Of a DNA stretch of 64,000 nucleotides, positions 20,817-44,060 are shown one piece after another (the stretch's first letter is position 1; each line of letters starts with the position of its first letter). Below the pieces are notes generated by a model. The model saw nothing but the letters and a program-made list of their open reading frames with translations. It had not been told where the DNA came from and did not search any database. The position numbers and the translations under genes were made by a program. The DNA is from Chloroflexota bacterium (GTDB lineage: Bacteria > Chloroflexota > Dehalococcoidia > Lucifugimonadales > UBA3495). The stretch covers positions 6,738 through 70,737 of the forward strand of contig JAPPLU010000087.1 in NCBI GenBank assembly GCA_028874075.1, written 5' to 3'.

Positions 20817-21968
20817 TTGAATGAAACCAGGGAAACATCCGGCCAGGTCCGCATTGTAGGCATGATAGGTGTCGCCCGTGAGGCGGCGGCCGCATCCGGC
20901 GCAACACTAAGCGTGTTCGGCGGGGGCATTAACCCCGGCGCCGAGGTGCCTGCCGGCGTGGACGGCGACTATATCCTGGAGTTCGCCCGCGTCCACGAGG
21001 ACGCCGGGTTCGACATGGTACTGACCGGCTACTCCTCCAGCACTCCCGACGGCTTCGAGGTGGCCGGATACGCGGCGGCCCACACCACCAACCTGGGCTA
21101 CCTCATCGCCCACCGGCCCGGCTTTGTGGCTCCCACCCTGGCGGCGCGCAAGGCCGCCACCCTCGACCAGCTTACCGGTGGCCGCATCGCCCTTCACATT
21201 ATCTCCGGCGGCAGCGACCTGGAGCAGGAAAGGGACGGCGATTTTCTGGATCACGATGCCCGTTACCGCCGCACCGACGAGTACATGGACATCCTCCGTC
21301 GCGCCTGGACCGCCACTGGTCCCTTCGATTACGAGGGCGAGTTCTACCGGCTGAAGGGGGCCAGCAGCCAGGTGCATTGCTTCCAGCGTCCCCATCTGCC
21401 CCTGTTTTTTGGCGGAGCATCGGACGCAGCCCTGGACGTGGGCAGCCGCCGCGCCGACGTTTTCGCCCTGTGGGGTGAACCCCGCGCCGCCATACGAGAA
21501 CGGGTGGCGGACATCCGCAGCCGAGCTGGAGAATGGGGCCGGAACATAGGGTTCAGCCTGTCGGTGCGGCCCATCCTGGGGGAAACGGAAGCCAGGGCGT
21601 GGGAACGGGCCGAGGCAATTCTGACACGAGTGCAGGACGCAACCAGGGGAAGCATCGTCCCGGGCCAGCCGGCCCGCCTGCAATCGGAAGGTTCGCGGAG
21701 GTTGCTTGAGTTCGCCGCCCAGAGCGATTTGCACGACGAGCGACTGTGGATGCCCGTGGCCGCAGCCAGCGGCGCCGCCGGCAGCACCACCTGCCTGGTG
21801 GGTACCCCACGACAGGTGGCCGAGTCTTTGCTGTCCTACTACGACCTGGGCTGCACCACCTTCATCATCCGGGGCTTCGACCCCCTGAAGGATGCCCGCG
21901 AATACGGCCGGGAACTCATTCACCGGCTGCGGGAAATGGTCGCCGGCCGTTCTTCAACCGTGGTTTAG
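20817..21968 (+). CDS. LLM class flavin-dependent oxidoreductase (SsuD-like)
   Basis: 383-aa ORF. Luciferase-like TIM barrel pattern (GRIALHIISGG, RYRRTDEYMDILRRAW). Confidence 0.9.
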   Translation: MNETRETSGQVRIVGMIGVAREAAAASGATLSVFGGGINPGAEVPAGVDGDYILEFARVHEDAGFDMVLTGYSSSTPDGFEVAGYAAAHTTNLGYLIAHRPGFVAPTLAARKAATLDQLTGGRIALHIISGGSDLEQERDGDFLDHDARYRRTDEYMDILRRAWTATGPFDYEGEFYRLKGASSQVHCFQRPHLPLFFGGASDAALDVGSRRADVFALWGEPRAAIRERVADIRSRAGEWGRNIGFSLSVRPILGETEARAWERAEAILTRVQDATRGSIVPGQPARLQSEGSRRLLEFAAQSDLHDERLWMPVAAASGAAGSTTCLVGTPRQVAESLLSYYDLGCTTFIIRGFDPLKDAREYGRELIHRLREMVAGRSSTVV

Positions 21969-22629: not shown

Positions 22630-25479
22630 ATGTCCATCTCCCTGACCGTTAATGGCAAGCAGGTTCAGTTAGCGGAAGGCGGGTCCGTGCTGGACGCCGT
22701 CAACGCCTCCAACACCTACCTGTCGCAGCTTTGCAAGGACCCGGACATGAAGGCCATCGGGGCCTGCCGTACCTGCCTGGTGCAGATCGAGGGTGTGCGT
22801 GGCTTCCCCGCCTCCTGTTCCGTCCCCGCCGCCGACGGCATGGTGGTGCAGACCGACACGCCGGAGGTTGAACGCATCCGGTCCGGCGTCCTGGAACTAA
22901 CCCTGGCCATGCTGCCGTCGGAGGCCCCGGTCCGGGCCGCCGTACCATCCCCCATCCGGGGCGAGGGCGAGTACGGGCAGTTGACCCGGGCCGCCCAACA
23001 TTACGGCATTGACGGCTCCCGCTGGCGATCCCGATCCCGGGAGGAAACGGACGCCAGCAACCCGGTCTTCACCATCGGCATGGAGTCCTGCATCCTCTGC
23101 GCCCGCTGCGTCAATGCCTGCCAGGAAGAGCACCAGTTCATCGGCGCCATTGATTTCATCGGGGCCGGGGAAGGCGGCCGCATCGGAACTTTTATGGACA
23201 AGCCCCTGGCAGACTCCATCTGCACCACCTGCGGCCAGTGCCTGTCCGTCTGTCCCACCGGAGCCATCCAGGCCAAGGCAACCATCGCGGAGTCTTTAGC
23301 CAGCACCCCCATCCTGACCTTCCCCCAGCACGGGGGAAGGGACTTGCGGGAAGCGCCGGAGGTCGGAGTCGAGAAAACGGTCTCCACCACCTGCCCCTAC
23401 TGCGGCGTGGGCTGCGGAATCAAAATGCAGGTCGGCGGCGCTGACGAAATCGTGGCGGTGGAGGATGACCCGGACAACCTCTCCAGCGTGGGTATGCTTT
23501 GTGTCAAGGGACGGTTCGGCGCTTCCTTCGTCCACCACCCTGACCGGCTGACCACGCCGCTGATTCGTGAAAATGGCGAATTCCGGGAAGCCACCTGGGA
23601 CGAGGCCCTGGACCTGATTGCCGACCGGCTGGTCAACTACCGGGACGACGACTTCGGCACTCTTTGCTCGGCCAAGGCCACCAACGAGGACGGGTACATC
23701 CAGCAGAAGTTCGCCCGACTACTGATGCAGACCAACAACATCGACCACTGCACCCGCCTGTGCCACTCGCCGTCGGTGGAGGCCATGCTGGCCACCCTCG
23801 GCAGCGGCGCAACCAGCAACTCCTACACCGACTACGAGAACGCCGGCTGCCTGGTGGTCATCGGCTGCGACCCCACCTCCAACCACCCGGTGGCGGCCTC
23901 CCGGATGCGCCGGGCTGTGGTGGAACGAGGCGCAAAGCTCATAGTCATCAACCCCCGTCGCATTGACATGTGCGACTACGCCGACCTGTGGCTCCGCCCC
24001 CACCCGGGCACCGACGTGGCCCTGCTCAACGGTATGGCCTGGGTTATCCTGGACGAAGGACTGGTGGACGAGGAATTCGTCGCCAACCGCACCGAGGACT
24101 ACGAGCAGTGGGCCCGGGTCGTTCAAGACTACCCACCGGAACGGGTGGAGGAGATTACCGGCGTTCCCTCCGAAGACCTGAAGCAGGCGGCGCGCCTGTA
24201 CGCCCAGCCGCCCTTCCCGGCCCGCTACGTGTTCGGCGATGAGGATAAGCCCTACGCCGGTTCCTGCCTAATCTGGGGCATGGGCATTACCCAGCACGTC
24301 AACGGCACGCCCAACGCCCACGGCCTGTTGAACCTGGCCCTGGTTACGGGCCAACTGGGCCGTCCCGGAAGCGGAGTGTCCCCCCTGCGAGGCCAGAACA
24401 ACGTCCAGGGCTGCGGCGACGCCGGCTGCATCCCCGACAACCTGCCCGGCTACCAGGGCTACCGCCCCGAGGTCCTGGCCCGCTTCGAGGCGGCGTGGGG
24501 CGGCCAGCCCCTGCCCGGCATTCGCGGCCTGGTCATTACCCAGATCGTCCAGTCCATCGGCCAGGACCACGGCGTCCGGGCGATGTACATCACCGGGGAG
24601 AATCCCCTGCTCAGCGAGCCAGACCTGAACGAGGCCGCCGAACTGTTCAAGAGCCTGGAGTTCCTGGTAGTGCAGGACATCTTCATGCACGAGACGGCGC
24701 AGATTGCCGACGTGGTGCTGCCGGCCACCAGCTTTGCCGAGAAGGACGGCACCTTCACCAACAGCGAGCGGCGGGTGCAGCGGATCCGCAAGGCAGTGGA
24801 ACCCCGGGGCCAAAGCAGACCCGACTGGGAGATAGTCTGCGACCTGGGCCGCCGCATGTGCCGCATGTTGGGCCTCCCCCTGGAAGACCAGTTCACCTAC
24901 GACCACCCCTCGGAGATATTCGATGAAATGGCGCGGCTGACTCCCATCCTGTCGGGCATCAGCTACGACCGCCTCGATCGGGAGGGCGGCATTCAGTGGC
25001 CGTGCCCCGAACCCGATCACCCGGGCACTCCCTACCTGTACGCCGATTCATTCCCCCGGGGGCCACGGGCCCGGTTCATTGGCTACCAACAGGGGCCGCT
25101 GTCGGACGAGCGGCCCAGCCGCCGCTACCCGCTGATCCTGAATACGGGCCGCGTCCTCTACCACTGGCACGGCGGCACCATGACCCGCCGGGTGTCGGGC
25201 CTGCTGACCCGGGCGCCCGACCTAGAGGTCTCCATCAACCCCTCTGACGGCGACAAATACGGCATCGCTGACGGGCAGACCGTTCGCGTCTCCTCCCGCC
25301 GGGGCGAACTGACCGGCAAGGCCCTTTTCACCGACCGGATGCGGACGGGGGAGATTTTTATTCCTTTCGTCAAGCTGTCGGAGTCGGCGGCCAACTTCCT
25401 TACGAACTCGGCCTACGACCCGGATACCATGATCCCCGAGTACAAGGTATGCGCAGTGCGGGTGGAAGCGGCGGAGTAG
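22630..25479 (+). CDS. fdhA: Formate dehydrogenase alpha subunit (molybdopterin), with N-terminal 2Fe-2S and 4Fe-4S domains; Cys-type
   Basis: 949-aa ORF. CRTCLV, CILCARCVNAC, CTTCGQCLSVCP and TTCPYCGVGC clusters. The active-site region is IDHCTRLCHSPSV, with TGC at 23761-23763. Confidence 0.92.
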   Translation: MSISLTVNGKQVQLAEGGSVLDAVNASNTYLSQLCKDPDMKAIGACRTCLVQIEGVRGFPASCSVPAADGMVVQTDTPEVERIRSGVLELTLAMLPSEAPVRAAVPSPIRGEGEYGQLTRAAQHYGIDGSRWRSRSREETDASNPVFTIGMESCILCARCVNACQEEHQFIGAIDFIGAGEGGRIGTFMDKPLADSICTTCGQCLSVCPTGAIQAKATIAESLASTPILTFPQHGGRDLREAPEVGVEKTVSTTCPYCGVGCGIKMQVGGADEIVAVEDDPDNLSSVGMLCVKGRFGASFVHHPDRLTTPLIRENGEFREATWDEALDLIADRLVNYRDDDFGTLCSAKATNEDGYIQQKFARLLMQTNNIDHCTRLCHSPSVEAMLATLGSGATSNSYTDYENAGCLVVIGCDPTSNHPVAASRMRRAVVERGAKLIVINPRRIDMCDYADLWLRPHPGTDVALLNGMAWVILDEGLVDEEFVANRTEDYEQWARVVQDYPPERVEEITGVPSEDLKQAARLYAQPPFPARYVFGDEDKPYAGSCLIWGMGITQHVNGTPNAHGLLNLALVTGQLGRPGSGVSPLRGQNNVQGCGDAGCIPDNLPGYQGYRPEVLARFEAAWGGQPLPGIRGLVITQIVQSIGQDHGVRAMYITGENPLLSEPDLNEAAELFKSLEFLVVQDIFMHETAQIADVVLPATSFAEKDGTFTNSERRVQRIRKAVEPRGQSRPDWEIVCDLGRRMCRMLGLPLEDQFTYDHPSEIFDEMARLTPILSGISYDRLDREGGIQWPCPEPDHPGTPYLYADSFPRGPRARFIGYQQGPLSDERPSRRYPLILNTGRVLYHWHGGTMTRRVSGLLTRAPDLEVSINPSDGDKYGIADGQTVRVSSRRGELTGKALFTDRMRTGEIFIPFVKLSESAANFLTNSAYDPDTMIPEYKVCAVRVEAAE

Positions 25480-25486
25480 GGGCACC

Positions 25487-25882
25487 TTGGATTTCTTCGT
25501 CGCCTATCACGCCGCCGACCAGGATTCGGCCGAGTGGGTCGGTCAGCGCCTGCAGGATGAGGGCTATTCCGTTGAACTGCAGTCGTACGACTACTGGGCC
25601 CGCTCCAGCATGATCCTGGAGATGTTCGCCGTCTCCGCCATAGCCGATGCTACCATCGCCCTGCTTTCCCCCTACTTCCTGGCCGAAAACCTGGACCGGC
25701 CCGAATGGCAGGCCGCCTACGCCCAGGACCCCGCCGGAACCCAGGGAATCCTGCTGCCCGTGCGGGTGCGGGAGTGTGACGTGGAAGAGGCGCTGCCGGG
25801 GGTGCGTTTCGTTGACCTGGTAGGGCTGGGGGAAGAAGAGGCACGGGAGGCCCTGTTGGAGGGGATCAGGGAGAGGAGTTAG
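25487..25882 (+). CDS. Standalone TIR domain protein (131 aa)
   Basis: TTG start 7 nt after the fdhA stop. DFFVAYHAADQDSAEWVGQRLQDEGYSVELQSYDY...IALLSPYFLAENLDRPEWQAA...LLPVRVRECD follows the bacterial TIR_2 pattern. Confidence 0.72.
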   Translation: MDFFVAYHAADQDSAEWVGQRLQDEGYSVELQSYDYWARSSMILEMFAVSAIADATIALLSPYFLAENLDRPEWQAAYAQDPAGTQGILLPVRVRECDVEEALPGVRFVDLVGLGEEEAREALLEGIRERS

Positions 25883-26768: not shown

Positions 26769-27257
26769 TTAGCGCTCCCCCGCCCCCGAAAACTCCGCGG
26801 CGGCGGCCTGAGCCATCTCCTCCGGCGCCAAGTCCTTGACGTGGGTGGCCAGGCCCCAGTGGTGGCCGTAGGGGTCCCGCACCATGCCGTAGCGATCGCC
26901 CCAGAAAGCGTCCATCGGTTCCATCACCGACTCGCACCCGGCATCCAGGGCCCGCCGGTACATTCCATCCACGTCTTCGGTATAAATGTGCAAGGCGACG
27001 GTGGTGCCCTTGGCGGTGGTGGGCGACAGGGCGTCGGCGCAAAACTCCGGCGGGAACTCGTCGGCTATCATAATGAAGGAATCGCCAACCCGCAGCAGGC
27101 CGTGGGCCAGCAGGTCCATGCCCGGCATGGGAAATCGGGAAATCTCCACGGCACCGAAGGCCTTAACGTAGAAATCCATGGCCTCGCCGGCGTTCTTGAT
27201 GGTCATGTGGGGGGTTACCGACCGGAATCCTGGTGGAATGGGAGATACGGTAGTCAT
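26769..27257 (-). CDS. VOC (glyoxalase/bleomycin-resistance, PhnB-like) family protein
   Basis: ATG at 27257 with AGGAG upstream. Motif: VTPHMTIKNAGEAMDFYVKAFGA...DAFWGDRYGMVRDPYGHHW. Confidence 0.85.
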   Translation of the reverse strand: MTTVSPIPPGFRSVTPHMTIKNAGEAMDFYVKAFGAVEISRFPMPGMDLLAHGLLRVGDSFIMIADEFPPEFCADALSPTTAKGTTVALHIYTEDVDGMYRRALDAGCESVMEPMDAFWGDRYGMVRDPYGHHWGLATHVKDLAPEEMAQAAAAEFSGAGER

Positions 27258-27461
27258 TACTTGCTCCTGAAGCATGGTTTGAGCGGCGGCGCGGCCACGC
27301 CTGCCCATTATGATACTCCCGGAAGGACTGAACTTTCTTGGGGCAAGTGTCAGTAAAATTGCGGATTTTGGAGGCCCACACCCCCTGCCCTTGTTCCTCT
27401 GGGAATACGGCAGGGGGTGAATGCTCCAAACTCTCTAGAAGGGGACAATGCGGGGACTTGG

Positions 27462-27959
27462 CTAGGTTCGCTGCTGCTCCTGCTCCAGCCGCCGCCGTTC
27501 CCGGGTGGTGATGGCGCGGATGGCCTCATCAATGCCCATGCGGCCCACGGGGCCGGAGGCATACATCGCCCCCAGGACCACTCCGCCTCGGCCCAGAAGG
27601 AACTCCGAGGGCTGGATGTAGCCGTCGTGGTCATCCGACCACCAGGCCCCTATCTTATCGCCATCTTCCCTGGTCGCCCCATACCCTACGGGGAAGGTCA
27701 ACCCCTTGCCAACAACCTCGGTGGACTGTTCCAGGGTGTCGGTGCTGATGGCGTAGATGGTGGCTTCCAGTCCCTCCAGTTCGGTCTTCTTCTCTTCCCA
27801 CGCGGCCAACTGCCGCATGCAGTAGGGTCACCAGTGGCCCCGGTAGAACAGCACCGCCGCATACCGCCCGGTCATATCCTCGGGAATGCGTATTTGCTTG
27901 CCGTCCACCGTGTTAAAGGTCAAAGACGGGAACCGGTCTCCCTGTTGCAGCTTTTCCAT
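27462..27959 (-). CDS. Peroxiredoxin-like (AhpC/TSA-redoxin fold) protein with in-frame TGA; candidate selenoprotein (U44-P-Y-C47)
   Basis: ATG at 27959 has GGGAGG upstream. It reads 43 codons ending ...VLFYRGHW, then TGA (27830-27828), then the same frame runs PYCMRQLAAWEE... to the stop at 27462. The TGA replaces the first Cys of the family WCPYC motif. Confidence 0.65.
27799..27819 (-). promoter_or_regulatory. SECIS-like hairpin downstream of the in-frame TGA
   Basis: Minus strand: catgcggc-AGUUG-gccgcgtg. The stem is 8 bp with one G-U pair and starts 8 nt after the TGA. The loop contains GU. Confidence 0.4.
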
Positions 27960-27995
27960 AGCATGCCTCCCTTGGGGTTTGCCCTGGCAGTCGCC

Positions 27996-29222
27996 CTAAT
28001 CGTCGGCGGCCGTGGGCACCGCATCCTCCGCTACGCCCTCGGGCCACCAGGGGTCTTCGTAGCCGCTCCAGATATCCTTGATGTGGGGCATTACCTCTTT
28101 GGCGAACAGTTCGGTGTTCTTCAGGGTCAGGTCCTTGGGCATGGTGCCGATGTGGAGCAGACACATCAGGTGGCCCACCCGCAGCAGGTTGATGGCCTCG
28201 GTCAGCCGTTCCCTCACCGTTTCGGGGCTGCCGGCGATAACGTGGCCCTGCTCGACAAAGTCCTCCCAACCCAACTCGCTGGCTGCCTTCTGCGCCTCCT
28301 CGCCAATCTGGGGCCGCAGCGACTCCCGCACCGAGGTTATTGACCGGTAGCCTGGCGACTCGGCAAAGGGAGCGTGGATGCGCAGCATCTTCTGGTAGAA
28401 ATACTTGACGTGGTCTTCGTACTCCTCCTTGGCCGATTCGTCGGTCTCGGAGACGCAGATTAGTTGAAGGAAGCCCAGCCGGTAGGGGTTGTCGTCGATT
28501 CCCCGTTCCGCCACCCGATTCCAGAAGCCGTCCACCACCCGCTTGCCCCGCAGATAGCCAAAGTAGCTCAGGTAGCAGTAGACATAGTCCCGGTCCAGCA
28601 CCCAATCCCAGGTTTCCAGGCTGCCGCTGCCTGGAATCCAGACCGGCGGGTGGGGCTGCTGCAGAGGCCGGGGCCAGATGCTGACGTAACGCAGCTTGTT
28701 GTACTTGCCGTTGAAGATGAAGGGTTCCCGCTCAGACCAGGCCTTCATAATCAGGTCGTGGGCCTCGGTGTGCTTCTCCCGCAGGGTGATGGGCACCTGG
28801 CCATAGGAGAAGGTGGTGTCCATGGAGGTGCCCACGGGAAAACCGGCCACCAGCCGGCCGCCGCTCATCAGGTCCAGCATGGCCATTTCTTCGGCTACCC
28901 TCAGGGGAGGCTGGTACAGGGCCAGACTGTTGCCCAGCACCACCAGAGCCGCCCGGGAGGTGGAACGGGACAGCACGGAGGCGATGAGGTTGGGCGAGGG
29001 CATGATGCCGTAGGCATTGTTGTGGTGCTCGTTGACGCACACCCCGTCAAAGCCCATCTGGTCGGCGTACTGCAGTTCGTCCAGGTAATCGGTATAGTGA
29101 TGCTGGCCCAGTTCCGGGTCGAAGTTTTCGTTGGGCAGGTCCACCCAGGCACTGTGGTGCCTGGACTCGAAGTCCTGGGGCAGGTGCTGGTAGGGCATCA
29201 GGTGGAAGAAGGAGACTTTCAT
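27996..29222 (-). CDS. LLM class flavin-dependent oxidoreductase
   Basis: ATG at 29222 (MKVSFFHLMPYQ...). Motif: FDGVCVNEHHNNAYGIMPSPN. The track ORF extends to 29291. Confidence 0.9.
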   Translation of the reverse strand: MKVSFFHLMPYQHLPQDFESRHHSAWVDLPNENFDPELGQHHYTDYLDELQYADQMGFDGVCVNEHHNNAYGIMPSPNLIASVLSRSTSRAALVVLGNSLALYQPPLRVAEEMAMLDLMSGGRLVAGFPVGTSMDTTFSYGQVPITLREKHTEAHDLIMKAWSEREPFIFNGKYNKLRYVSIWPRPLQQPHPPVWIPGSGSLETWDWVLDRDYVYCYLSYFGYLRGKRVVDGFWNRVAERGIDDNPYRLGFLQLICVSETDESAKEEYEDHVKYFYQKMLRIHAPFAESPGYRSITSVRESLRPQIGEEAQKAASELGWEDFVEQGHVIAGSPETVRERLTEAINLLRVGHLMCLLHIGTMPKDLTLKNTELFAKEVMPHIKDIWSGYEDPWWPEGVAEDAVPTAADD

Positions 29223-29752
29223 AAGGCTCACCCGCGGCTGTGTTTGGGGCCGATGTTTGGGAGATAATAGCACATACTTGGCCCTCTCCATAGCTGAACC
29301 GGTCAGGTCCCTAAAACCGTCTTACCAGCGAGAGGCTGAAGCCAAGAATTAAACCAGCTTGCGATTTATGGGAGAAAGAGATTTCTGAGCCCAGCCTCCG
29401 AATTCAGGTACATTTTACAGAGTAGGAGAAGGATCAAACCCCCTACCTTATCAACCCACAAAATCCATCCCCATCGCAAAACCCTGCCCCCTCAAGACAT
29501 TCCCATCTCACTTGAGGCTCCAGCTGTATCTACACTGGGTGCGGGTTTGTAACCCGCCCTGCAATAGCGGGGACAACACCACTGGTCAACCAACCTCCCC
29601 TTCCTCTGGCCAAGGGGTCCGGAGATAAGGGCCCACTCAAAATAAGACCACATGAAACTACAATCCAAAGACTCTCACCTCATACGGACTGCTCGTCGCC
29701 TGCAGCGCTTGCTGCGTTGCCTAACGCCATATACCAATGGCCCGGTGTCCCG

Positions 29753-29832: not shown

Positions 29833-31011
29833 ATGGCAGTCAATGGCAACGGCAAATCCCAACGGATGAAATTTGGCGTTTTCATGGCCCCCTTCCACCG
29901 GGTGGGCGAGAATCCTACGCTGGCCCTGGAACGCGACCTGGAATTGCTCCAGTGGCTGGACATGCTGGGATTCGACGAAGCCTACATCGGGGAGCACCAC
30001 TCGGCCGGATGGGAAACCATCGCCTCACCCGAGGTGTTCATCGCCACGGCGGCCGAGCGCACCCGCAACATTCGGCTGGGCACCGGCGTTATCAGCCTAC
30101 CCTACCATCACCCCCTGATGGTGGCCAACCGCATGGTGCTGCTGGACCACCTGACCAAGGGCAGAGTAATCCTGGGCGTTGGGCCGGGGGCCCTGGCTTC
30201 CGACGCCCTGATGTTGGGCATAGATCCTGCTCGCCAGCGGGAGATGATGGACGAGTCTCTGGGCATCATTCTCCGTTTATTCACGGAATCGGACCCCATC
30301 ACCTACAAAAGCGACTGGTTCGAACTTAACGAGGCGGTGCTGCAGCTTCGGCCCTACCAGCAGCCCCATCTGCCCGTGGCCGTGGCATCGGTACAGTCCC
30401 CGGCGGGAGTAACTGTGGCCGGCAAGCACGGAGCCTCCGTCCTTTCCATGAGCATCCCCCGGGACACCGTGCGTTCCACCAGCCTGAAGGAGTTGTGGTC
30501 GATTGCCGAGGACTCGGCGGCGGAACACGGCAAGGAGGTCCACCGGGAGGACTGGGGCCTGGTGGTGGGCATGCACCTGGCCGAGAGCAAGAAGGAAGCC
30601 ATTGAGGACATACGGGTTGGCGGTGGGCGCCTGGTTACGGAGTACTTCGGCAGGACCCTGGGCAACGAAGTCCCCGATGTCCCCCAGGACCAGATTGTTG
30701 ACTTCATGATTGAGCATAACCAGTGGATAGTGGGCACACCCGACGACTGCATTGCGGGCATCGAACGTCTGCAAGAAATCAGCGGCGGATTCGGCAGCTT
30801 TATGATAAGGGTGGAGGACTGGGCGCCCAGAGAGAAAATTCTCCATAGCTATGAGCTGCTGGCCCGCTATGTGATGCCCCACTTCCAGGGCAGCCTGGTA
30901 GGTATCCAGACTTCCAATCGGTGGGCGCAAGAGCGTAAGGATGCGCTGCAGGCCAACCGGATTACCGGGCTACGGCAGGCCACAGACTCCTATTACGCCA
31001 ACCGCGAATAG
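29833..31011 (+). CDS. LLM class flavin-dependent oxidoreductase (LimB-like)
   Basis: 392-aa ORF. Motif: MKFGVFMAPFH...FDEAYIGEHHSAGWE. The start may instead be at 29866. Confidence 0.9.
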   Translation: MAVNGNGKSQRMKFGVFMAPFHRVGENPTLALERDLELLQWLDMLGFDEAYIGEHHSAGWETIASPEVFIATAAERTRNIRLGTGVISLPYHHPLMVANRMVLLDHLTKGRVILGVGPGALASDALMLGIDPARQREMMDESLGIILRLFTESDPITYKSDWFELNEAVLQLRPYQQPHLPVAVASVQSPAGVTVAGKHGASVLSMSIPRDTVRSTSLKELWSIAEDSAAEHGKEVHREDWGLVVGMHLAESKKEAIEDIRVGGGRLVTEYFGRTLGNEVPDVPQDQIVDFMIEHNQWIVGTPDDCIAGIERLQEISGGFGSFMIRVEDWAPREKILHSYELLARYVMPHFQGSLVGIQTSNRWAQERKDALQANRITGLRQATDSYYANRE

Positions 31012-32966: not shown

Positions 32967-34421
32967 TTAGGGCGTCGGCATTGACCTTGGCAATGTGCTG
33001 CTGCCCACCAAGTACTGGTCTGCACCACGGGCTACCTCGCGGCCCTCGGCGATGGCCCAGACAACCAGGGACTGGCCCCGGGCCATGTCGCCGCCGGCGA
33101 AGACGCCGGGGACGCTGGTCATCTTGTTCTCGTCAACCTGCACGTTACCCCGGCCGTCCAGGTCCACCCCCAGGTCGGTAAGCATGCCCTCGTGTTCGGG
33201 GTGCAGGAAGCCCATGGCCAGCAGCACCAGGTCCGTCTCAACTTCCATCTCGCTGCCGGGGACTTCGTTCATGACGAAGCGGCCATCCTCGCCGGTAGTC
33301 CAGTCCACCCGCACGGCGTGGAGCTTTTCCACCTGGCCGTTGCTGCCCGTAAAGGACTTAGTCAGGATGTTATAGTCGCGGATTCCACCCTCTTCATGGG
33401 CTGCGGATGAGCGGAGAATCATGGGCCATTGGGGCCAGGGATTGTCGGGGCGGCGCTCCTCCGGCGGTTCGGGAAGCAATTCAAACTGGTAGACCACCTC
33501 GGCCCCCTGGCGGTGGGCCGTGCCCAGGCAGTCGGCACCCGTGTCGCCCCCGCCCAGGATTACCACCCGCTTGCCCTCGGCGGTGATGTGCTCCTCAAGG
33601 TCAATATCCTCGCCGGCCAGCAGTTTGTTCTGCTGGGGGAGATAGTCCATGGCCAGGTGAATGCCGTCCAGTTCCCGCCCCGGTACGGGCAGGTCGCGGG
33701 CCTGGGTGGAGCCTCCGGTCAGGCAGACGGCGTCGTACTCTTCCAGCAGGTCCTTGACGGGGTAATTGACGCCCACGTTGACGCCGGTGCGAAACTCGAC
33801 GCCCTCGTCGGCCATTAGCTGGACACGCCGGCGGACCACGTCCTTGTCCAGCTTGAAGTCGGGGATGCCCAGCATCAGCAGGCCGCCAATGTAGTCGGCC
33901 CGCTCGAAAACGGTGACCCGGTGGCCGGCGCGGTTAAGCTGCTGGGCGGTAGCCAGGCCGGCGGGTCCGGAACCCACCACCGCCACCTTTTTGCCGGTTC
34001 GGTGGTCCGGCGGCTGGGGCTTGATCCAGCCCTCCTTGTAACCGCGGTCGGAGATTTCCTTCTCTATGTACTCGATGGTCACTGGATCGGTGTTTATGCT
34101 CAGTACGCAGGATGCTTCGCAGGGGGCAGGGCAGATGCGGCCGGTGAACTCGGGGAAGTTGTTGGTGCTGAGCAGCACATCCAACGCCTTCTGCCAGTCC
34201 CCCATGTATACGTGGTGGTTGAATTCTGGGATGACGTTGCCCAGGGGGCAGCCCATGTGGCAGAAAGGGACGGCACAGTCCATGCACCGGGAACCCTGTT
34301 CCCTGGCATCGGGTTCGGGCCAGTCCAGATAGAGTTCCTGGTAGTCGCCCTTGCGTTCGGCGACGGGACGGCGACTGGGCGGCCGGCGTCCGAAATCCAT
34401 AAATCCGGTAGGTTTACCCAT
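32967..34421 (-). CDS. gltD: Glutamate synthase (NADPH) small subunit
   Basis: 484-aa ORF. N-terminal Fe-S Cys clusters and VAVVGSGPAGL / VVILGGGDTGADC dinucleotide folds. Confidence 0.95.
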   Translation of the reverse strand: MGKPTGFMDFGRRPPSRRPVAERKGDYQELYLDWPEPDAREQGSRCMDCAVPFCHMGCPLGNVIPEFNHHVYMGDWQKALDVLLSTNNFPEFTGRICPAPCEASCVLSINTDPVTIEYIEKEISDRGYKEGWIKPQPPDHRTGKKVAVVGSGPAGLATAQQLNRAGHRVTVFERADYIGGLLMLGIPDFKLDKDVVRRRVQLMADEGVEFRTGVNVGVNYPVKDLLEEYDAVCLTGGSTQARDLPVPGRELDGIHLAMDYLPQQNKLLAGEDIDLEEHITAEGKRVVILGGGDTGADCLGTAHRQGAEVVYQFELLPEPPEERRPDNPWPQWPMILRSSAAHEEGGIRDYNILTKSFTGSNGQVEKLHAVRVDWTTGEDGRFVMNEVPGSEMEVETDLVLLAMGFLHPEHEGMLTDLGVDLDGRGNVQVDENKMTSVPGVFAGGDMARGQSLVVWAIAEGREVARGADQYLVGSSTLPRSMPTP

Positions 34422-34500: not shown

Positions 34501-35049
34501 TCAGGAAAACAACACGGACAAGGGCAACTCCCAACCCTCCACCACATCGCCACCGAAAAGCGTATCTTCTTCAGTCAAAATCTCAATGTCATGCCTGGAG
34601 CGGTAGACCGTAACGATGCGGCGGCGAGGGTCAACGGTCACCACCATCCGGCAGCCAGCATCCACCCACTCCATCACCATCTCCTTGACTTCCGTATAGG
34701 AATCGCCCGGTGATATTACTTCAATAGCCAAATCAGGTGCCCCAGGTCGAAACCCTGGCAGTACACCCGTTTCCTCAATCACTTCCCTCCGGACAAAAGC
34801 CACGTCAGGCGCCCTTACGGTATCTGGATTGCGCGCGATAATGAATCCTGTTCCAGCCAAAAAGACCGCGCCAAGGTCATTAGTTTCTACGTGCTGACCC
34901 AATCGCCGACCCGCTCTCATTCCTACTTGACCATGTTCATCACCCGCCGGAGCCATTTCACGCAATTCTCCCCGCACTAACTCCCGCCGCACGTGTTTGT
35001 CCGGCAACAGCAGCAATTGTTCAGCGGTTATGGTGGTTGCGGTGGTCAT
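34501..35049 (-). CDS. Uma2 family (DUF820) endonuclease
   Basis: 182-aa ORF. Motifs: ELVRGEL..MAP.G..HG, PDVAFV and PDLAIEVISP, typical of Uma2. Confidence 0.85.
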   Translation of the reverse strand: MTTATTITAEQLLLLPDKHVRRELVRGELREMAPAGDEHGQVGMRAGRRLGQHVETNDLGAVFLAGTGFIIARNPDTVRAPDVAFVRREVIEETGVLPGFRPGAPDLAIEVISPGDSYTEVKEMVMEWVDAGCRMVVTVDPRRRIVTVYRSRHDIEILTEEDTLFGGDVVEGWELPLSVLFS

Positions 35050-35107: not shown

Positions 35108-38100
35108 TTAGTCGGCAGTGGTGGCAGCCAGTTCGGCAGCCTGCCGGCGCTGTTCCAGAACCCGGCGGTAGTCCCTGGGCATTACCTTTTTGAACTTGGC
35201 TACGGAACCATCCCAATCGGCAAGAATATTCCGGGCCGGAACGCTGCCGGTGTATTCCAGGTGGTCTTCGATCAGCTTGCGGAGCAACGCGATGTCCTCG
35301 GGGTCGGCCAGGTTTTCCAGGTCGGCAAGGCCATCGTTGAAGCGGATGGAGAAATCGTCGTTAGGGTCGTATACAAAGGCGATGCCTCCGCTCATGCCCG
35401 CGGCGAAGTTACGGCCGGTGGGGCCAAGGATTACGGCCACGCCACCGGTCATGTACTCGCAGCCGTGGTCGCCGATGCCCTCTATGACGGCCTGGACTCC
35501 ACTGTTGCGGACGCAGAAGCGCTCACCACCCATACCGCGGATGAAGGCCTGGCCGCCGGTGGCGCCGTAAAGGGCCACATTGCCGATGATGATGTTCTCC
35601 TCGGCAACGAAATCGGAACCGGCGGGCGGCACCACCACAATCCTGCCGCCGTTCATACCCTTGCCCATGTAGTCGTTGGTGTCACCGGACAGGCGGATGT
35701 CCACGCCCTTAGCCAGGAAAGCGCCGAAGCTTTGGCCAGCGGAACCGTCCAGGCTAATCCGTATCGTTCCCGGGGGCAGTCCCTCTTCACCGTATTTCAT
35801 GGCAACCTTGCCGCTGAGCATCGCGCCAACGGTTCGGTTGGAGTTACGGATGGGCAGGTCAATCTCTACCGGTTGACCGTGTTGGATGGCGGGGGCAGCC
35901 CGATCAATTAGCTGGTGGTCCAGGGCCAACTCCAGCCCGTGATCCTGTTCATCGCACTGGTAGATCGTGACCTCGTCGCAACGGGGGTGGCGGTACAGCA
36001 GCTTGTCGAAGTCCAGGTCGCGGGCCTTCCACTGATCTACGTCCGTGTTGGCTTCCAGCATTTCCACACGACCGATCATTTCCTGAACGGTGCGGAAACC
36101 AAGTTGGGCCATGATCTCCCGCAACTCCTCGGCCACGAAAAAGAAGTAGTTGATGACGTATTCGGGCTTGCCGGCGAAGCGAGCCCGCAGTTCCGGGTCC
36201 TGGGTGGCAATACCCACGGAGCAGGTGTTCAGGTGGCACTTGCGCAGCATAATGCAGCCGCTGACAATCAGGGGAGCGGTGGCGAAGCCGATTTCGTCGG
36301 CGCCCAACAGGAAGGCAATGGCAGCATCGCGACCAGTTTTGAGTTGGCCGTCGGTCTGCACCACGATGCGGCTCCGCAGGTCGTTGGCGACCAAGACCTG
36401 CTGGGTCTCAGCCAGGCCCAACTCCCAGGGCAGGCCGGCGTGCTTGATGGAAGACTCGGGGGATGCCCCAGTGCCGCCGTCGTGCCCGCTGATGAGCACC
36501 ACGTCGCCGTGGCCCTTGGAAACACCGGCGGCGATGGTGCCAACGCCTACCTCGGCCACCAGCTTGACGTGGATGCGGGACTCCGGGTTGATGTTCTTCA
36601 GGTCGTGAATCAGCTGGGCCAGGTCTTCAATAGAGTAGATGTCGTGATGGGGCGGCGGCGAAATCAGCTCTACGCCGGGGGTGGTGTGCCGAACCCAGCC
36701 AATAGTGTCATCCACCTTGTGGCCGGGAAGCTGGCCGCCCTCGCCTGGCTTGGAGCCCTGAGCCATCTTGATCTGCAGGTCGGTGGCGTTGACCAGGTAA
36801 TTGGGAGTAACGCCGAACCGGCCCGACGCCACCTGCTTGATGGCGCTGTTGCGAGAATCGCCGTTTTCGTCGGGGGTGTAGCGGTGGAAGTCCTCGCCGC
36901 CCTCGCCGGTATTGCTGCGGGCGCCGATGCGGTTCATGGCGATGGCCATGGTCTCGTGGGCTTCCTTGCTGATGGAACCGAAGGAAGCGGCGCCGGTGGC
37001 AAACCGCTTAACAATATCCTTCGCCGGCTCAACCTCGTCCAAAGGCACCGGCTCGCGGTCGGAATTGAAGTCCAGCAGGCCCCGCAGGGTGGCAAGCTGG
37101 CGGCTCTGGTCGTTGACTGCCTGGCTGAACTCCTGGTACGACTTCCAGCTATTGGCGCGAGTGGCGTACTGGAGCTTGGCGATGGTGTCCGGGTTCCACT
37201 GGTGGACTTCGCCGTGGCGGCGCCACTGGTACGTCCCGCCGGGATCCAGGTCCAGGGTGGCGTCAACTTCGTGAACGGGGAAGGCGAAGCGGTGCCGCTG
37301 CAGCTGCTCTTCCTCCACCACGTCCAGGCCGATGCCCTCCACACGGGACGGGGTCCACGTGAAGTACTGGTCGATGAAGTCCTGGTTCAGGCCGACGGCC
37401 TCGAATATCTGGGCGCCCTGGTAGCTCTGCGCGGTGGAAATGCCCATCTTGGACATTACCTTGAGCAGGCCCTTTTCGTTGGCTTTGATGAAGTTCTTGA
37501 CGGCGTAGTCGGGCTTGGTGCCGTTCAGTTCACCCCGGTCGGCCAGGTCCTGGACCGTAGCCAAGGCCAGGTAGGGGTTGACGGCGCTGGCGCCGTAGCC
37601 CAGCAGCAGGCAGAAGTGGTGTACCTCGCGGGGTTCGCCAGTTTCCATGACCAGCCCCACCCTGGTGCGGGTGCCCTCCCGAATCAGGTGGTGGTGGACG
37701 GCCGCGGTCGCCAGCAGGCTGGGAATGGGAGCCTGGTCGCCGGTTACACCCCGGTCGGACAAAACGATGATGCTATAACCGTCGTTGATGGCCTTGGATG
37801 CTTCTCCACAAAGGCGGTCAAGAGCTTCCTTCAGCGCGCCTTCGCCTTGGGAACTGAACAGGGTGGACAGGGTAATGGATCGTATGTCGTTCAGGTCCAA
37901 GCCCTGAATCTTGGCCAGTTCCTCGTCTGTGATAATAGGGGACTTGATCTTTACCTGGCGGCAGTGGAGTGGGGTCTCTTCGAAGAGATTCCGCTCACTT
38001 CCGATGAAGCCCTCCACTGAAGTGACCAGTTCTTCGCGGATTGCGTCCAGGGGAGGGTTGGTAACCTGGGCGAACAACTGTTTGAAGTAGTTGAACAGCA

Positions 38101-39658
38101 ACTGGCTCTTTTCGGACAGGACTGCCAGGGGGGCGTCGTTGCCCATGGAACCCACCGCCTCGTATGCCGAGGTGGCCATGGGGGTGGTGAGCATCCGCAG
38201 TTCCTCGATGGTGTAACCGAAGGCCCGCTGCTGCTTTACCAACTCCTGGCCCCTGAAGACTTCAGGGGTCGCAGGATCGGGCAGGTCGTCCAGTGAGACC
38301 TTGTTTTCCTTGAGCCATTTTCCATAGGGCTGCCGACGGGAAAGGGTCTGCTTCAGTTCCTCGTCGCGGATGATTCGGCCCTGCTCCAGGCTGACCAGGA
38401 ACATGCGGCCAGGCTGCAGGCGGCCCCGCTGCAGGATGTTCTCCGGGGCAATATCCAGGACACCCGTTTCCGACGCCATTACCAGCTTGTCGTCCTTGGT
38501 TACGGTGTAGCGGAAGGGCCGCAGGCCGTTGCGGTCCAGGACGGCGCAGATGTCCTTGCCGTTGGCGGCCACGATCATGGCGGGCCCGTCCCACGGCTCC
38601 ATCAGACAGGAGTGGAATTCGTAAAAGTCCTTCTTCTCCTGGGTCATGGTCTCGTGCTGTTCCCAAGCCTCGGGAATCATCATCAACATCGAGTGGTCCA
38701 GGCTGCGCCCGGTCATCTGCAGCAGTTCCAAGGCGTTGTCGAAACCGGCGGTATCGCTGGCGCCGGGAGTCATTATGGGCGGAATCTTCTTGATGTCATC
38801 GCCGAACAGGGGCGACTCAAACTGAGCCTCCCGAGCGTGCATCCAGTTGCTGTTGCCCCGCAGTGTGTTAATTTCGCCGTTGTGGGCCAGATAGCGGTAG
38901 GGGTGGGCCAACTTCCAATGGCCCAGGGTGTTGGTGCTGAAGCGGGAGTGGACCAGAGCAAAGGCGCTGACCAGGGCTTCATCGTTCAGGTCCAGGTAGA
39001 AACCGGCCACCTGGTGGGCCATAAGCAGGCCCTTGTAGACCAGGGTGCTGTTGGTCAGGCTGCAGATATAAAAGTAGTCGGCGTCGTCTACGCTGATGCC
39101 GATGTCCGAAAGGCCGTTCTCGATTACCTTGCGCAGGGTGTAGAGCTTGCGCTGCAACTGGGCGGGGTCAAGCTGTTCCGCACCGCAACCAACGAAGAAC
39201 TGGCGGATGACGGGCTGGACGGCCCGGGCATCGCGGCCCAGCTTGTCAGGGTCAACTGGAACGTCGCGCCAGCCCAGCAAAGTCAGGCCCTCGGCGGCGA
39301 TGGAGTTGTCAATCAGGCCTTCGCAGGCGGCCTTGGCGGCAGGACTGGGGGGCAGAAAAGTCATCCCGACACCATAGGAACCCAAGTCCGGCAGGTCGAT
39401 GCCCAGGAAGGGGCAGACCTTGCGGAAAAAGGCGTCTGGCATCTGCAGCAACATGCCCGCGCCGTCGCCGGTTTCGGGGTCACAGCCACAGGCGCCTCGG
39501 TGACCAAGATTCACCAGGACCTGCAGGGACTCAGTGATGATCTCATGGGACTGGCCGCCCTTGATGTTGGCGACCACGCCTACGCCACAGCTGTCGTGTT
39601 CGTGGTGGGGAGAATACAGGCCGTTCTGGGCCAGTTCCCTTAAAGAATTCATTGACAC
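35108..39658 (-). CDS. gltB: Glutamate synthase large subunit
   Basis: 1516-aa ORF. HDSCGVG amidotransferase N-terminus, an FMN/3Fe-4S central domain and a GXGXG C-domain. Confidence 0.97.
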   Translation of the reverse strand: MSMNSLRELAQNGLYSPHHEHDSCGVGVVANIKGGQSHEIITESLQVLVNLGHRGACGCDPETGDGAGMLLQMPDAFFRKVCPFLGIDLPDLGSYGVGMTFLPPSPAAKAACEGLIDNSIAAEGLTLLGWRDVPVDPDKLGRDARAVQPVIRQFFVGCGAEQLDPAQLQRKLYTLRKVIENGLSDIGISVDDADYFYICSLTNSTLVYKGLLMAHQVAGFYLDLNDEALVSAFALVHSRFSTNTLGHWKLAHPYRYLAHNGEINTLRGNSNWMHAREAQFESPLFGDDIKKIPPIMTPGASDTAGFDNALELLQMTGRSLDHSMLMMIPEAWEQHETMTQEKKDFYEFHSCLMEPWDGPAMIVAANGKDICAVLDRNGLRPFRYTVTKDDKLVMASETGVLDIAPENILQRGRLQPGRMFLVSLEQGRIIRDEELKQTLSRRQPYGKWLKENKVSLDDLPDPATPEVFRGQELVKQQRAFGYTIEELRMLTTPMATSAYEAVGSMGNDAPLAVLSEKSQLLFNYFKQLFAQVTNPPLDAIREELVTSVEGFIGSERNLFEETPLHCRQVKIKSPIITDEELAKIQGLDLNDIRSITLSTLFSSQGEGALKEALDRLCGEASKAINDGYSIIVLSDRGVTGDQAPIPSLLATAAVHHHLIREGTRTRVGLVMETGEPREVHHFCLLLGYGASAVNPYLALATVQDLADRGELNGTKPDYAVKNFIKANEKGLLKVMSKMGISTAQSYQGAQIFEAVGLNQDFIDQYFTWTPSRVEGIGLDVVEEEQLQRHRFAFPVHEVDATLDLDPGGTYQWRRHGEVHQWNPDTIAKLQYATRANSWKSYQEFSQAVNDQSRQLATLRGLLDFNSDREPVPLDEVEPAKDIVKRFATGAASFGSISKEAHETMAIAMNRIGARSNTGEGGEDFHRYTPDENGDSRNSAIKQVASGRFGVTPNYLVNATDLQIKMAQGSKPGEGGQLPGHKVDDTIGWVRHTTPGVELISPPPHHDIYSIEDLAQLIHDLKNINPESRIHVKLVAEVGVGTIAAGVSKGHGDVVLISGHDGGTGASPESSIKHAGLPWELGLAETQQVLVANDLRSRIVVQTDGQLKTGRDAAIAFLLGADEIGFATAPLIVSGCIMLRKCHLNTCSVGIATQDPELRARFAGKPEYVINYFFFVAEELREIMAQLGFRTVQEMIGRVEMLEANTDVDQWKARDLDFDKLLYRHPRCDEVTIYQCDEQDHGLELALDHQLIDRAAPAIQHGQPVEIDLPIRNSNRTVGAMLSGKVAMKYGEEGLPPGTIRISLDGSAGQSFGAFLAKGVDIRLSGDTNDYMGKGMNGGRIVVVPPAGSDFVAEENIIIGNVALYGATGGQAFIRGMGGERFCVRNSGVQAVIEGIGDHGCEYMTGGVAVILGPTGRNFAAGMSGGIAFVYDPNDDFSIRFNDGLADLENLADPEDIALLRKLIEDHLEYTGSVPARNILADWDGSVAKFKKVMPRDYRRVLEQRRQAAELAATTAD

Positions 39659-40076: not shown

Positions 40077-40430
40077 GGGGACGCGCGGGTTCGACAGGAG
40101 CGTCCTGGGGCAGATTGCAAGCCGAGGCGCCACCGCCCTCGTTAATCAGGTGGCACACAAATAACTGGCGAACGTGAATTCGCTCTAGCCGCCTAAGCGC
40201 GGCTACGTCCGTACCCTGCTACTCCCGGATGCGGGGCTACGGGCGCCATTAGGCCGGGATGCGGTTGCCCTGAAGCCGATAGGGGTTGCTCAAGATTAAT
40301 CGGCTGGCCTGACGGATATTAGGCCGGCGGAAGCTCCGACAGGCGAGAACTAGAGCGCCGGACAAGCTTGTAGTAGATCTAGTCTAGGGGCCTTTTGGAC
40401 GGGGAGTTCGACTCTCCCCCGTCTCCACCA
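40077..40430 (+). ncRNA. ssrA: tmRNA (transfer-messenger RNA)
   Basis: 5' GGGGACGCGCGGGTTCGACAGG and 3' GGACGGGGAGTTCGACTCTCCCCCGTCTCCACCA form the tRNA-like ends. The tag reading frame at 40167-40196 encodes GEREFALAA followed by a stop. Confidence 0.93.
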
Positions 40431-41533: not shown

Positions 41534-42583
41534 TCAGCCGGCGGCCAGGGCGGGCAAGATGTGGTTGGAGAAGGCCTGAACTTCCGCTTGGGGCGGCGCA
41601 AAGGTAAGGCAGGGCATGAGATAAAGCTGGTTGACGCCGTGTCGCTCCATTTCCCTAATGCGCTGCGTACAGTATTCCGGGGTGCCGATTAGCCCCAGGG
41701 CGTCGCATAGCTGCCCGTTGACTTCGTCGCTGACGAAGCCCGTCATGTCGATGGCTTCCTCCCAGTTGGGTGCGTGCCCCAGGTCGGGATAAATGTCGTA
41801 CACGGCCTGGGGTATCTTGTATTCGGGTATGTCATAGCCGGAATAGGGGAGCCAGTTGGGACCGCCCCACATGAGACCCCAGTGAACGGACACGGGCCGA
41901 GCCAGACGTCGGGCCTCGTCCACCGAGTCTGCGATGCAGGTCCTGACCGCAAACATAATGTCCAGGTCATCCAGGGTACGGCCGCTGCGCCGGGCGCCGA
42001 TTTCCAAATGCTCCAGGGCCTTTCCCACTATGCCGGGGGTGTAGCCCACCAGGGCAAGAGCGCCGTCGGCCACCTCGCCGGCCAGTTGGAGCGAGCGGGG
42101 TCCCGAGGCCGCCATTAGCACCGGCACACCGGCGCCGCCATCGCTGCCGGCGAAGTCCAGCCGATTCGTCATTCCGTCATATTCCACGCTTTCCCCGGCC
42201 AGCAAGGCCTTAACCTCAGTGATGCAGCGGCGCATCTGACGCAGGGTGGCGGGACGGCGGCCGATGGTACTGGCGGAAGTGTATCCGGTGCCGATAATTA
42301 TGCGGGTGCGGCCAGGGGCTATTTCCGCTACCGTTTGCGCTGCGCCAGCCAGCACCGGGGCAATGCGGCCAAAGGGGTTGGTAACCGCGGGGAAGAGGCG
42401 CAGGGTACTGGTGGCGCTGGCGGCCAGGCCCAGGGTCACAAAGGTGTCCCGGCATATCATCTGGCTGTCCAGGATTCCGGCGCCGTCAAAACCGGCAGCC
42501 TCGATCTGCCGGATCATATCCAGCAACTCGGGCATGGGCGAAGTTCCGGGTACGCGCATGGAGATTTTGATGGGCTGGGCCAT
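41534..42583 (-). CDS. LLM class (probably F420-dependent) oxidoreductase
   Basis: ATG at 42583 with GGAGG upstream (MAQPIKISMRVPG...). The track ORF extends to 42970 across a non-coding repeat, and that extension is rejected. Confidence 0.88.
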   Translation of the reverse strand: MAQPIKISMRVPGTSPMPELLDMIRQIEAAGFDGAGILDSQMICRDTFVTLGLAASATSTLRLFPAVTNPFGRIAPVLAGAAQTVAEIAPGRTRIIIGTGYTSASTIGRRPATLRQMRRCITEVKALLAGESVEYDGMTNRLDFAGSDGGAGVPVLMAASGPRSLQLAGEVADGALALVGYTPGIVGKALEHLEIGARRSGRTLDDLDIMFAVRTCIADSVDEARRLARPVSVHWGLMWGGPNWLPYSGYDIPEYKIPQAVYDIYPDLGHAPNWEEAIDMTGFVSDEVNGQLCDALGLIGTPEYCTQRIREMERHGVNQLYLMPCLTFAPPQAEVQAFSNHILPALAAG

Positions 42584-42803
42584 GGCGGATACCTCCGGTG
42601 GTGGGCTGACTTGATCAAGTTGACGCGGGAAAGTATACCAGCGCGGGGCAGCAGGCAGGACCGCAGCAACAAAGCTCCGATTCAGGCAGTCTGTGGTAAG
42701 GGCCCCGCGGATGCCCGCTTTTTCCCTTTTGCGGCAACTGCCAGATGCCGGTGAAATCCGGTATGACGAACGCCCTGACCAGCCAACCGGGGATTGCGCC
42801 ACG

Positions 42804-43970: not shown

Positions 43971-44060
43971 GGGAGTTCAGAAAGACAGGGATTTGCGGTA
44001 TCCTGTTGGCGGTTGCTGCCGCCAACCGTTATATATCCTACATGCTGGCGAGAGACTGAC

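Follow-up and report, generated by a model that had tools for sequence, protein, structure and literature searches.

A conserved in-frame TGA, very probably read as selenocysteine, in a peroxiredoxin-fold oxidoreductase gene of Chloroflexota

Selenoproteins built on a peroxiredoxin (Prx) scaffold have been described in more than one form. One group, the 'Prx-like thiol:disulfide oxidoreductases', is defined by the domain PF00578 and a UxxC or UxxU motif (U, selenocysteine, Sec) and is kept distinct from Prx selenoproteins with a TxxU motif (PMC13188914 Table). Proteins of this group were first predicted in Geobacter and other Deltaproteobacteria, and 'Prx-like 1' appears in the selenoproteomes of the Sargasso Sea and the Global Ocean Sampling survey (PMC1794560, PMC2398784, PMC13188914). 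The family had 8 members in 2006 (PMC1794560 Table 1), a later entry reads 'Prx-like 1, pfam00578, UxxC, 225 sequences' (PMC2398784 Table 2), and it is graded 'predicted with high confidence', without experimental characterisation (PMC13188914). Here, we analyse a gene that appears to belong to this family. It lies in a stretch of 64,000 nucleotides from a Chloroflexota bacterium (Dehalococcoidia; assembly GCA_028874075.1, contig JAPPLU010000087.1, positions 6,738 to 70,737), which we call the window. The gene occupies 27462..27959 on the minus strand, comprises 165 codons plus stop and would encode a Prx-fold thiol/selenol oxidoreductase with the redox motif U44-P-Y-C47. We propose, with a probability of roughly 0.93, that its in-frame TGA at codon 44 (27828..27830) encodes selenocysteine and that the product is a selenoprotein of 165 residues.

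The frame starts with ATG at 27959-27957, behind a ribosome binding site (RBS) GGGAGG at 27966..27971 with a spacer of 6 nt. It reads MEKLQQGDRFPSLTFNTVDGKQIRIPEDMTGRYAAVLFYRGHW, reaches the TGA at 27830-27828, continues as PYCMRQLAAW and ends with TAG at 27464-27462. The TGA thus sits inside a FYRGHW-U-PYC motif, in which the TGC at 27819..27821 encodes Cys47, the putative resolving partner of Sec44. An earlier note on this DNA had proposed this very frame, and every coordinate and the translation could be reproduced, as could its remark that the list of open reading frames (ORFs) shows the 3' piece only. Indeed, the mechanical ORF list contains just a 118-aa ORF at 27462..27818, the one reported by gene callers, which is an artefact of reading the Sec codon as a stop. 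After substitution of C for U, the full 165-aa translation matches PF00578 AhpC-TSA (E = 1.2e-16, 61.2 bits against a cutoff of 26, aa 7-128) and PF08534 Redoxin (E = 1.7e-10); together both matches span aa 5-129 and hence run across the TGA. A protein search returned 896 homologs. Among the best 120, about 100 are short ORFs (103-130 aa) whose alignment is limited to the C-terminal 55-72% of the query, indicating that the same truncation occurred in many assemblies. Public records accordingly carry the gene in truncated form, with 103-130 aa, under the names 'redoxin domain-containing protein' or 'peroxiredoxin'.

Conservation of the TGA is the first of two observations that carry the argument. 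Scanning species-representative genomes revealed at least 234 relatives, and the best 80 of the 234 were analysed (hereafter the 80 orthologs). They derive from 80 different species-level genomes, almost all of them metagenome-assembled genomes (MAGs) of Dehalococcoidia or other Chloroflexota; the outlying labels are one SAR202, one Caldilineales and one Entotheonellaceae. TGA is found at the codon-44 position in 80/80 orthologous loci, in addition to the window. In the alignment of these 81 sequences (A3; codon counts below refer to 80 unique sequences), nucleotide diversity at codon positions 1/2/3 is 0.275/0.172/0.526 in the 40 codons upstream of the TGA and 0.208/0.250/0.437 downstream of it, and therefore both sides evolve as coding sequence. 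An ATG is located 43-44 codons upstream of the TGA in 73/81 sequences, and a GGAGG-like RBS is present in those ortholog examples that were inspected. TGA also terminates this same gene in 13/80 related loci and 7/27 long ORFs in the window. It is still an ordinary stop codon and has not been reassigned in these genomes. A pseudogene, a sequencing error or an altered genetic code cannot explain this pattern of conservation.

More distant homologs tell which residue belongs at codon 44. When the protein with U replaced by C is aligned to its full-length homologs, 14 of them (among these P0008, P0030, P0035, P0055 and P0101) read HW-C-PYC, with the Cys exactly at codon 44, as expected from the Sec/Cys pair that had been claimed for this site. 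Four further full-length homologs are Joint Genome Institute (JGI) calls with HW-W-PYC (P0001-P0004, e.g. L168:841-1338). The DNA behind one of the four reads TGA, and the Trp in these calls is an artefact of translation with genetic code 4 on short contigs, which masks the TGA and yields full-length 'peroxiredoxin' entries. A single homolog, P0005 (L169:71-574), has HW-S-PYC; its codon is TCA, one base away from TGA. It sits on a contig of 755 bp, and its hairpin CGGCAGUUGGCCG is intact. This is either a very recent Sec-to-Ser change that would inactivate the site or a base-call error. Cys47, in turn, is invariant in both homolog alignments (A1 and A2).

The second observation concerns the RNA behind the TGA. 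In the window a hairpin folds at 27799..27819 (minus strand), CAUGCGGC-AGUUG-GCCGCGUG, with a stem of 8 bp that includes one U-G pair, a loop of 5 nt and a free energy of -13.1 kcal/mol. Counted from the UGA, the hairpin starts at 8 nt, its conserved core at 11 nt and the loop at 16 nt. This core (27802..27816, minus strand) consists of a 5-bp stem GCGGC/GCCGC and the AGUUG loop at 27811-27807, and it overlies codons for R-Q-L-A. In the 80 unique sequences the Arg at +5 is written CGG in 77, the Gln at +6 is CAG in all 80, the Leu at +7 is UUG in 65 and UUA in 15 with CUN in none, and the Ala at +8 is GCC in 75. For comparison, the orthologs use six codons for the Arg at -4 and all four for the Ala at +9, and in the window as a whole 65% of the Leu codons are CUG, 12% UUG and 1% UUA, with CGG accounting for 37% of the Arg codons. 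Codons +5 to +8 (CGG-CAG-UUR-GCC) are under RNA-level constraint at synonymous sites. The frozen bases pair as C-G, G-C, G-C and C-G around the AGUUR loop, and these four pairs are conserved to 97-100%. The next pair outward (columns 21-35) is G-C in 58, U-A in 12 and unpaired in 8 distinct sequences. Column 21 is the third base of codon +4, where the residue is free (Q, M, K, L, V, R, G, N, A, I, H), and it is almost always G when column 35 is C, regardless of that residue. When the hairpin codons are excluded, a rough neighbour-joining tree implies about 7 changes of the U-A state, which therefore does not go back to one inherited event. Across the alignment, 81.6% of cells are paired in this structure, and shifting the 3' partner by 1-3 columns lowers the figure to 21-44%. 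The covariation score of the structure, 0.138, compares with 0.086 +/- 0.008 for shuffled alignments and was reached by 0/500 of them. The outer three base pairs of the 8-bp stem are paired in just 33-69% of the sequences, and hence the conserved element is 5 bp plus loop. Of the 8-bp stem with AGUUG loop that had been noticed before and likened to a selenocysteine insertion sequence (SECIS), the fold at 27819-27799 therefore stands, while conservation is restricted to the inner 5 bp and AGUUR.

Genes with Cys at codon 44 serve as controls. In L161, which encodes the closest Cys form (P0008), R-Q-L-A is written AGG-CAG-CUC-GCG and the hairpin is absent. L166, encoding the Cys form P0035, uses CGC-CAG-CUG-GCG, which contains a chance 4-bp palindrome whose loop is AGCU instead of AGUU; the hairpin is also missing from three further Cys forms (R-R-H-L). 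Thus, Cys-form genes use other codons, and the synonymous freeze is specific to the TGA genes, as expected of a SECIS element. Scanning metagenomes for Cys-type DNA returned mostly distant relatives, and the four closest matches again carry a TGA (L081:2107, L082:2373, L083:3133 and L084:1378). They form a second TGA sub-family with FYRGNW-U-PYCRRQLASYQ. The stem in L082-L084 is CGCC-AGUU-GGCG, with an AGUU tetraloop, L081 retains CGGC, and CAGUU is common to all four. In the region of L166:1342, K-R-Q-L-A is written as GCGCCAGCUGGCG, whose AGCU is one base away from the AGUU loop of L082-L084; the P0035 palindrome may represent the remnant of a SECIS or a forerunner of one. Separately, a search of the ortholog flanks for TGA followed by an AGUUR hairpin gave 5 matches, all of them off-frame noise or a terminator-like hairpin, and from this flank search a lineage-wide SECIS consensus could not be derived.

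Published criteria for bacterial SECIS (bSECIS) elements, as summarized in the legend to Fig. 2 of PMC13188914, are an apical loop of 3-9 nt on an upper stem of 4-16 bp, a G within the first two loop positions that is usually followed by G or U, a distance of 16-37 nt between UGA and loop, and a minimum free energy of <= -7.5 kcal/mol. The window hairpin lies within all four (loop of 5 nt, G at position 2 followed by U, 16 nt, -13.1 kcal/mol), which answers the call for a SECIS predictor made together with the original observation. We applied the criteria in a simplified version that demands a strictly contiguous stem, and 59/81 sequences (80 orthologs and the window) pass it. Taken alone, the hairpin is weak evidence; what decides is the comparison, that is, TGA in 80/80 loci together with the conservation of the hairpin.

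Relatives of the source organism suggest in three independent ways that the lineage can decode Sec. Firstly, ARAGORN finds a tRNA-Sec with anticodon TCA about 4.2 kb downstream of the ortholog in L046 (14728-14822, minus strand) and L078 (14552-14646, minus strand), and the copy in L046 matches Rfam RF01852 with 70.3 bits against a gathering score of 47. Secondly, a candidate selenoprotein gene is encoded 3.8 kb downstream of the ortholog in L048 (13598-14317, plus strand). It has a TGA at 13898 within C-R-Y-U, is CMD/AhpD-like (PF02627 at 7e-10), matching the known selenoprotein family 'AhpD-like 2, pfam02627, CxxU', and carries a hairpin ACGCAGG-GUC-CCUGCGU (7-bp stem, GUC loop) 17 nt after the TGA; among the loci examined this gene is confined to L048. 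Thirdly, the genome that contains L019 (isolate 10f4566d-ab44-49ae-b774-fc9f760c6436) is listed in Table 2 of BSepDB among the ten most selenoprotein-rich bacteria, with 46 genes, and another Dehalococcoidia genome in the same table has 49 selenoproteins (PMC13326102). The tRNA-Sec of L046 adjoins a thioredoxin gene (14860-15255), a gene for a CDGSH/Fer4_19 iron-sulfur protein and two aminoacyl-tRNA synthetase genes; selA, selB and selD are not adjacent to the tRNA-Sec in L046 or L078. The L048 gene came from a general scan of the flanks that gave 36 candidates, two of which were put through Pfam, and it is the credible one; the other tested candidate is a trpC gene with an upstream stop, and the remaining ones look like GC-rich off-frame ORFs. 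Use of Sec would be selective, as had been noted for the window, where FdhA carries a Cys (TGC at 23761, in TRL-C-HSPSV). A scan of the window produced no further convincing in-frame TGA gene. The other candidate, at 43968, was rejected: at 43308-44465 (plus strand) a PD-(D/E)XK nuclease gene and an unrelated helix-turn-helix (HTH) gene share one frame and are divided by this TGA, an ordinary stop, and 14 codons, an arrangement that mimics read-through in a naive scan.

A number of points weigh against selenocysteine at codon 44. The fold of 66 nt has a z-score of -0.94, so that the hairpin by itself is moderately unusual. Of the 1557 TGA triplets in the window, 7.1% pass the simplified bSECIS criteria, and 0.5% do so with a qualifying hairpin as stable as -13.1 kcal/mol. 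The spacing of 16 nt is at the lower edge of the published range of 16-37 nt, and 22/81 sequences fail the contiguous-stem test because of a mismatch or bulge (e.g. L046/L078 and L054). Two of these, L046 and L078, are mismatched in the main register and refold into the same tetraloop form with one bulge. The SECIS covariance models of Rfam gave no match to 27740-27880 even at E <= 10; Rfam covers bacterial SECIS elements to a limited extent. Within the 64-kb window, ARAGORN and Rfam detected a tmRNA alone and no tRNA-Sec, and tblastn with SelA, SelB and SelD gave 0 matches, both in the window and in 80 flanking regions of about 20 kb each; as the E. coli queries are unverified, this result has little weight, and it says nothing about the whole genomes. 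The window is the only part of the source genome that was searched, and the Sec machinery of the source organism is inferred from its relatives. Finally, the evidence for Sec at codon 44 stands at the level of nucleic acids and homologs.

The UGA might instead be read as a standard amino acid (Trp, Gly or Cys), either by a suppressor tRNA or by near-cognate read-through that the hairpin stimulates. Such a reading would be in line with the pipelines that translate the site as Trp and with selA, selB and selD being unseen in the sequence searched. However, TGA is a functional terminator in these genomes, the 'W' stems from code-4 calling on short contigs whose DNA reads TGA, and the site is a Cys in homologs, the catalytic nucleophile of CxxC, which is the classic signature of a Sec/Cys pair. 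Since tRNA-Sec is moreover found in related genomes and one related genome is catalogued as Sec-utilising, we regard decoding as a standard amino acid as very unlikely. A second possibility is that translation begins at Met48 (27818) and yields the 118-aa protein as the true product, the 43 codons upstream being a separate leader peptide or a regulatory upstream ORF that ends at the TGA. In favour of this, an ATG comes immediately after the CxxC segment and about 100 entries for such 118-aa proteins exist in databases, but this Met lies within the conserved hairpin and is itself not conserved, codon +4 being Q, M, K, L, V, A, N and others. The shorter piece would also lack the N-terminal beta-strands that are modelled with high confidence in the Cys homolog P0030, as well as the whole redox motif, and the Pfam domain begins at residue 5-7. 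A family start at the downstream Met, named in the earlier note as an outcome that would overturn its proposal, is at odds with 43 N-terminal codons that are conserved, show coding-type substitutions and lie within the Pfam domains, and a start at Met48 is thus exceedingly improbable. That a nonsense change or sequencing error hit an ordinary CxxC redoxin and left the upstream frame as a decaying remnant is scarcely credible, even if gene callers give the 118-aa 3' piece only and the relative on the 755-bp contig shows with its TCA that assemblies can differ by a single base at this codon, because the same TGA recurs in 80/80 independent species-level genomes, the upstream codons are under purifying, coding-type selection with start codon and RBS conserved, and a specific hairpin is both conserved and covarying.

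If codon 44 encodes selenocysteine, the question arises what kind of enzyme is made. Only weak sequence similarity links the protein to solved structures (Prx6-type 6q5v at 5e-6, BCP 2cx3 and ResA 4nmu). In the alignment to 6q5v and 2cx3 the peroxidatic Cys of T-P-V-C falls onto Cys47, the site of the peroxidatic Cys in true Prx, and the conserved Prx Thr falls onto the TGA codon. The TGA position thereby corresponds to the N-terminal site of a thioredoxin-like (Trx-like) CxxC and to the Thr of the Prx motif T-x-x-C. An AlphaFold2 model of the Cys homolog P0030, which is 57% identical and has the HWCPYC motif, reaches a pLDDT of 91; its active-site helix starts directly after Cys45, the equivalent of Sec44, and Cys48 is located in the first turn. 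The nearest structures in the Protein Data Bank (PDB) are Bcp4, PrxQ, Prx6 and AhpC2 at a TM-score of about 0.8 and about 20% identity, with values of 0.78-0.81 for 3hjp, 6q5v and 5ovq. No NCBIfam model captures the window protein: all matches remain far below their cutoffs, with 30.7/140 bits for BCP, 27.9/270 for PrxU, 23.3/272 for AhpC and 18.5 against 120 for the SelL-related model NF040769, and the matches to TlpA, ResA and StoA are weak as well. The motif P-x-x-x-T/S-x-x-C of peroxiredoxin proper is not present, as the Thr position is taken by Sec, or by Cys in homologs. In the weak, low-identity alignment to 6q5v the region of the catalytic Prx Arg falls on an invariant I-Q-P segment, and this Arg may be absent from the window protein. 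Loss of the Thr and the possible loss of the Arg speak for disulfide or sulfenate exchange rather than the activity of a canonical peroxidase. The original description as AhpC/TSA peroxiredoxin-like holds with respect to PF00578 and the Prx fold, but a canonical Prx has Thr and not Cys at the TGA position. Judged from alignments and the model, the protein would therefore be a Prx scaffold with a thioredoxin-type U-x-x-C centre rather than a peroxiredoxin proper.

If decoding follows the pattern of E. coli and Moorella, SelB loaded with Sec-tRNA(Sec) would bind the mRNA hairpin behind UGA-44, and selenocysteine would be inserted at codon 44 without termination. In a BCP/PrxQ-like fold, Sec44 would immediately precede the active-site helix at its N-terminal end, with Cys47 in the first turn of this helix. 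The selenolate of Sec44 could then attack an oxidised substrate, presumably a disulfide, sulfenate or peroxide, Cys47 would resolve the intermediate into an intramolecular selenenylsulfide, and a thioredoxin-type reductant would recycle it. Beyond this, one may think of a distinct Prx-fold subfamily of Chloroflexota in which a fixed Sec, a lineage-specific SelB rule and a function shared with luciferase-like monooxygenases (LLM) come together. Relatives are encoded in at least 234 species-level genomes with Sec at this position in all 80 examined, and the subfamily may have dropped the Prx Thr and perhaps the catalytic Arg too. The minimal, frozen CGGC-AGUUR-GCCG at a spacing of 16 nt, placed in the codons of the active-site helix, could reflect a recognition rule of SelB that is specific to this lineage. 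The protein may cooperate with the expanded LLM of the window lineage, for example by removing peroxide or sulfenate by-products. As a joint proposal we consider these three parts unlikely to hold.

The genes next to the locus are given here as context only. An LLM gene (27996..29291, minus strand; Pfam Bac_luciferase, 3.3e-35) ends 36 nt before the ATG, and a glyoxalase/VOC protein is encoded downstream of the coding sequence (26769..27308, minus strand; Pfam Glyoxalase, 2.1e-14). The cluster of LLM, Prx-like and VOC genes that had been pointed out for the window exists there, and its order is shared with the closest relatives (L001-L012, L016; L001, on OZ219949.1, is the nearest), but an LLM gene lies directly upstream in just 12/80 loci. 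A VOC gene is likewise adjacent in 12/80, and this low frequency led us to reject operonic linkage with LLM or VOC genes as a family trait. The window contains four LLM flavin monooxygenase paralogs within 22 kb, at 20817-21968 (plus), 27996-29291 (minus), 29833-31011 (plus) and 41534-42970 (minus strand); expansion of LLM paralogs is typical of SAR202-type Chloroflexota. An FdsA-type formate dehydrogenase alpha subunit of 949 aa is encoded at 22630-25479, and 8 nt after its stop follows a gene for a TIR-domain protein of 131 aa (25487-25882, plus strand; PF13676, 6.7e-19), the position of which is kept in 12 related genomes. A putative restriction endonuclease of the Uma2 family (34501-35049, minus strand; PF05685, 9e-30) is encoded between the large gene for glutamate synthase (35108-39658) and a gene for a gltD-like pyridine-nucleotide oxidoreductase (32967-34421). 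The tmRNA gene is located at 40077-40430 (plus strand; Rfam, 152.5 bits) and specifies the tag peptide GEREFALAA.

UxxC Prx-like selenoproteins and selenoprotein-rich Dehalococcoidia have already been published (PMC2398784, PMC13326102). The family has been known since 2004-2008 and the lineage is catalogued as rich in selenoproteins; the gene may already be contained in BSepDB. There is no new mechanism in our data, and the outcome is an annotation fix. The practical consequence is that, with NCBIfam models failing and records truncated, redox-enzyme inventories of Dehalococcoidia and SAR202-like MAGs miss the active site of this gene. In addition, the locus offers a well-sampled case of a SECIS overlaid on conserved R-Q-L-A codons, including a covarying pair and Cys-form controls, and the data should be useful for training predictors of SECIS elements and selenoproteins.

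How does the locus relate to known systems? Compared with the bSECISearch model (Zhang and Gladyshev, 2005, as presented in Fig. 2 of PMC13188914), the hairpin is alike in its 5-nt loop, the G at position 2 followed by U, the upper stem of 5-8 bp and the distance of 16 nt. It differs in its minimal spacing, its short conserved stem of 5 bp and an AGUUR loop that does not vary within the family; binding by SelB is predicted. With TlpA/ResA/CcmG and the eukaryotic SelL (UxxU), the protein shares W-C/U-x-x-C at the N-terminus of the active-site helix, so that disulfide-exchange chemistry would be expected. Its structural neighbours, however, are BCP, PrxQ and Prx6 rather than TlpA and ResA, and its scores are far below the cutoffs for TlpA, ResA and SelL. 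Selenocysteine peroxiredoxins (Prx/PrxU, TxxU) have the Prx fold, the Pfam family and recoding by a bacterial SECIS in common with the window protein. However, the Sec of PrxU occupies the site of the peroxidatic Cys, whereas the window protein has Cys47 there and its proposed Sec three residues upstream, at the Thr. Closest are the Prx-like UxxC selenoproteins, with an AhpC/TSA domain, Sec as the first residue of a UxxC that replaces T-x-x-C, abundant Cys homologs and a SECIS directly downstream inside the coding sequence. Assignment to this family, whose reference member is WP_010940744.1 of Geobacter, is suggested by the PF00578 domain and the motif. What sets the present proteins apart within such a family is their clade, Chloroflexota/Dehalococcoidia, the signature FYRGHW-U-PYC-x-RQLA and a C-terminal RERRRLEQE helix.

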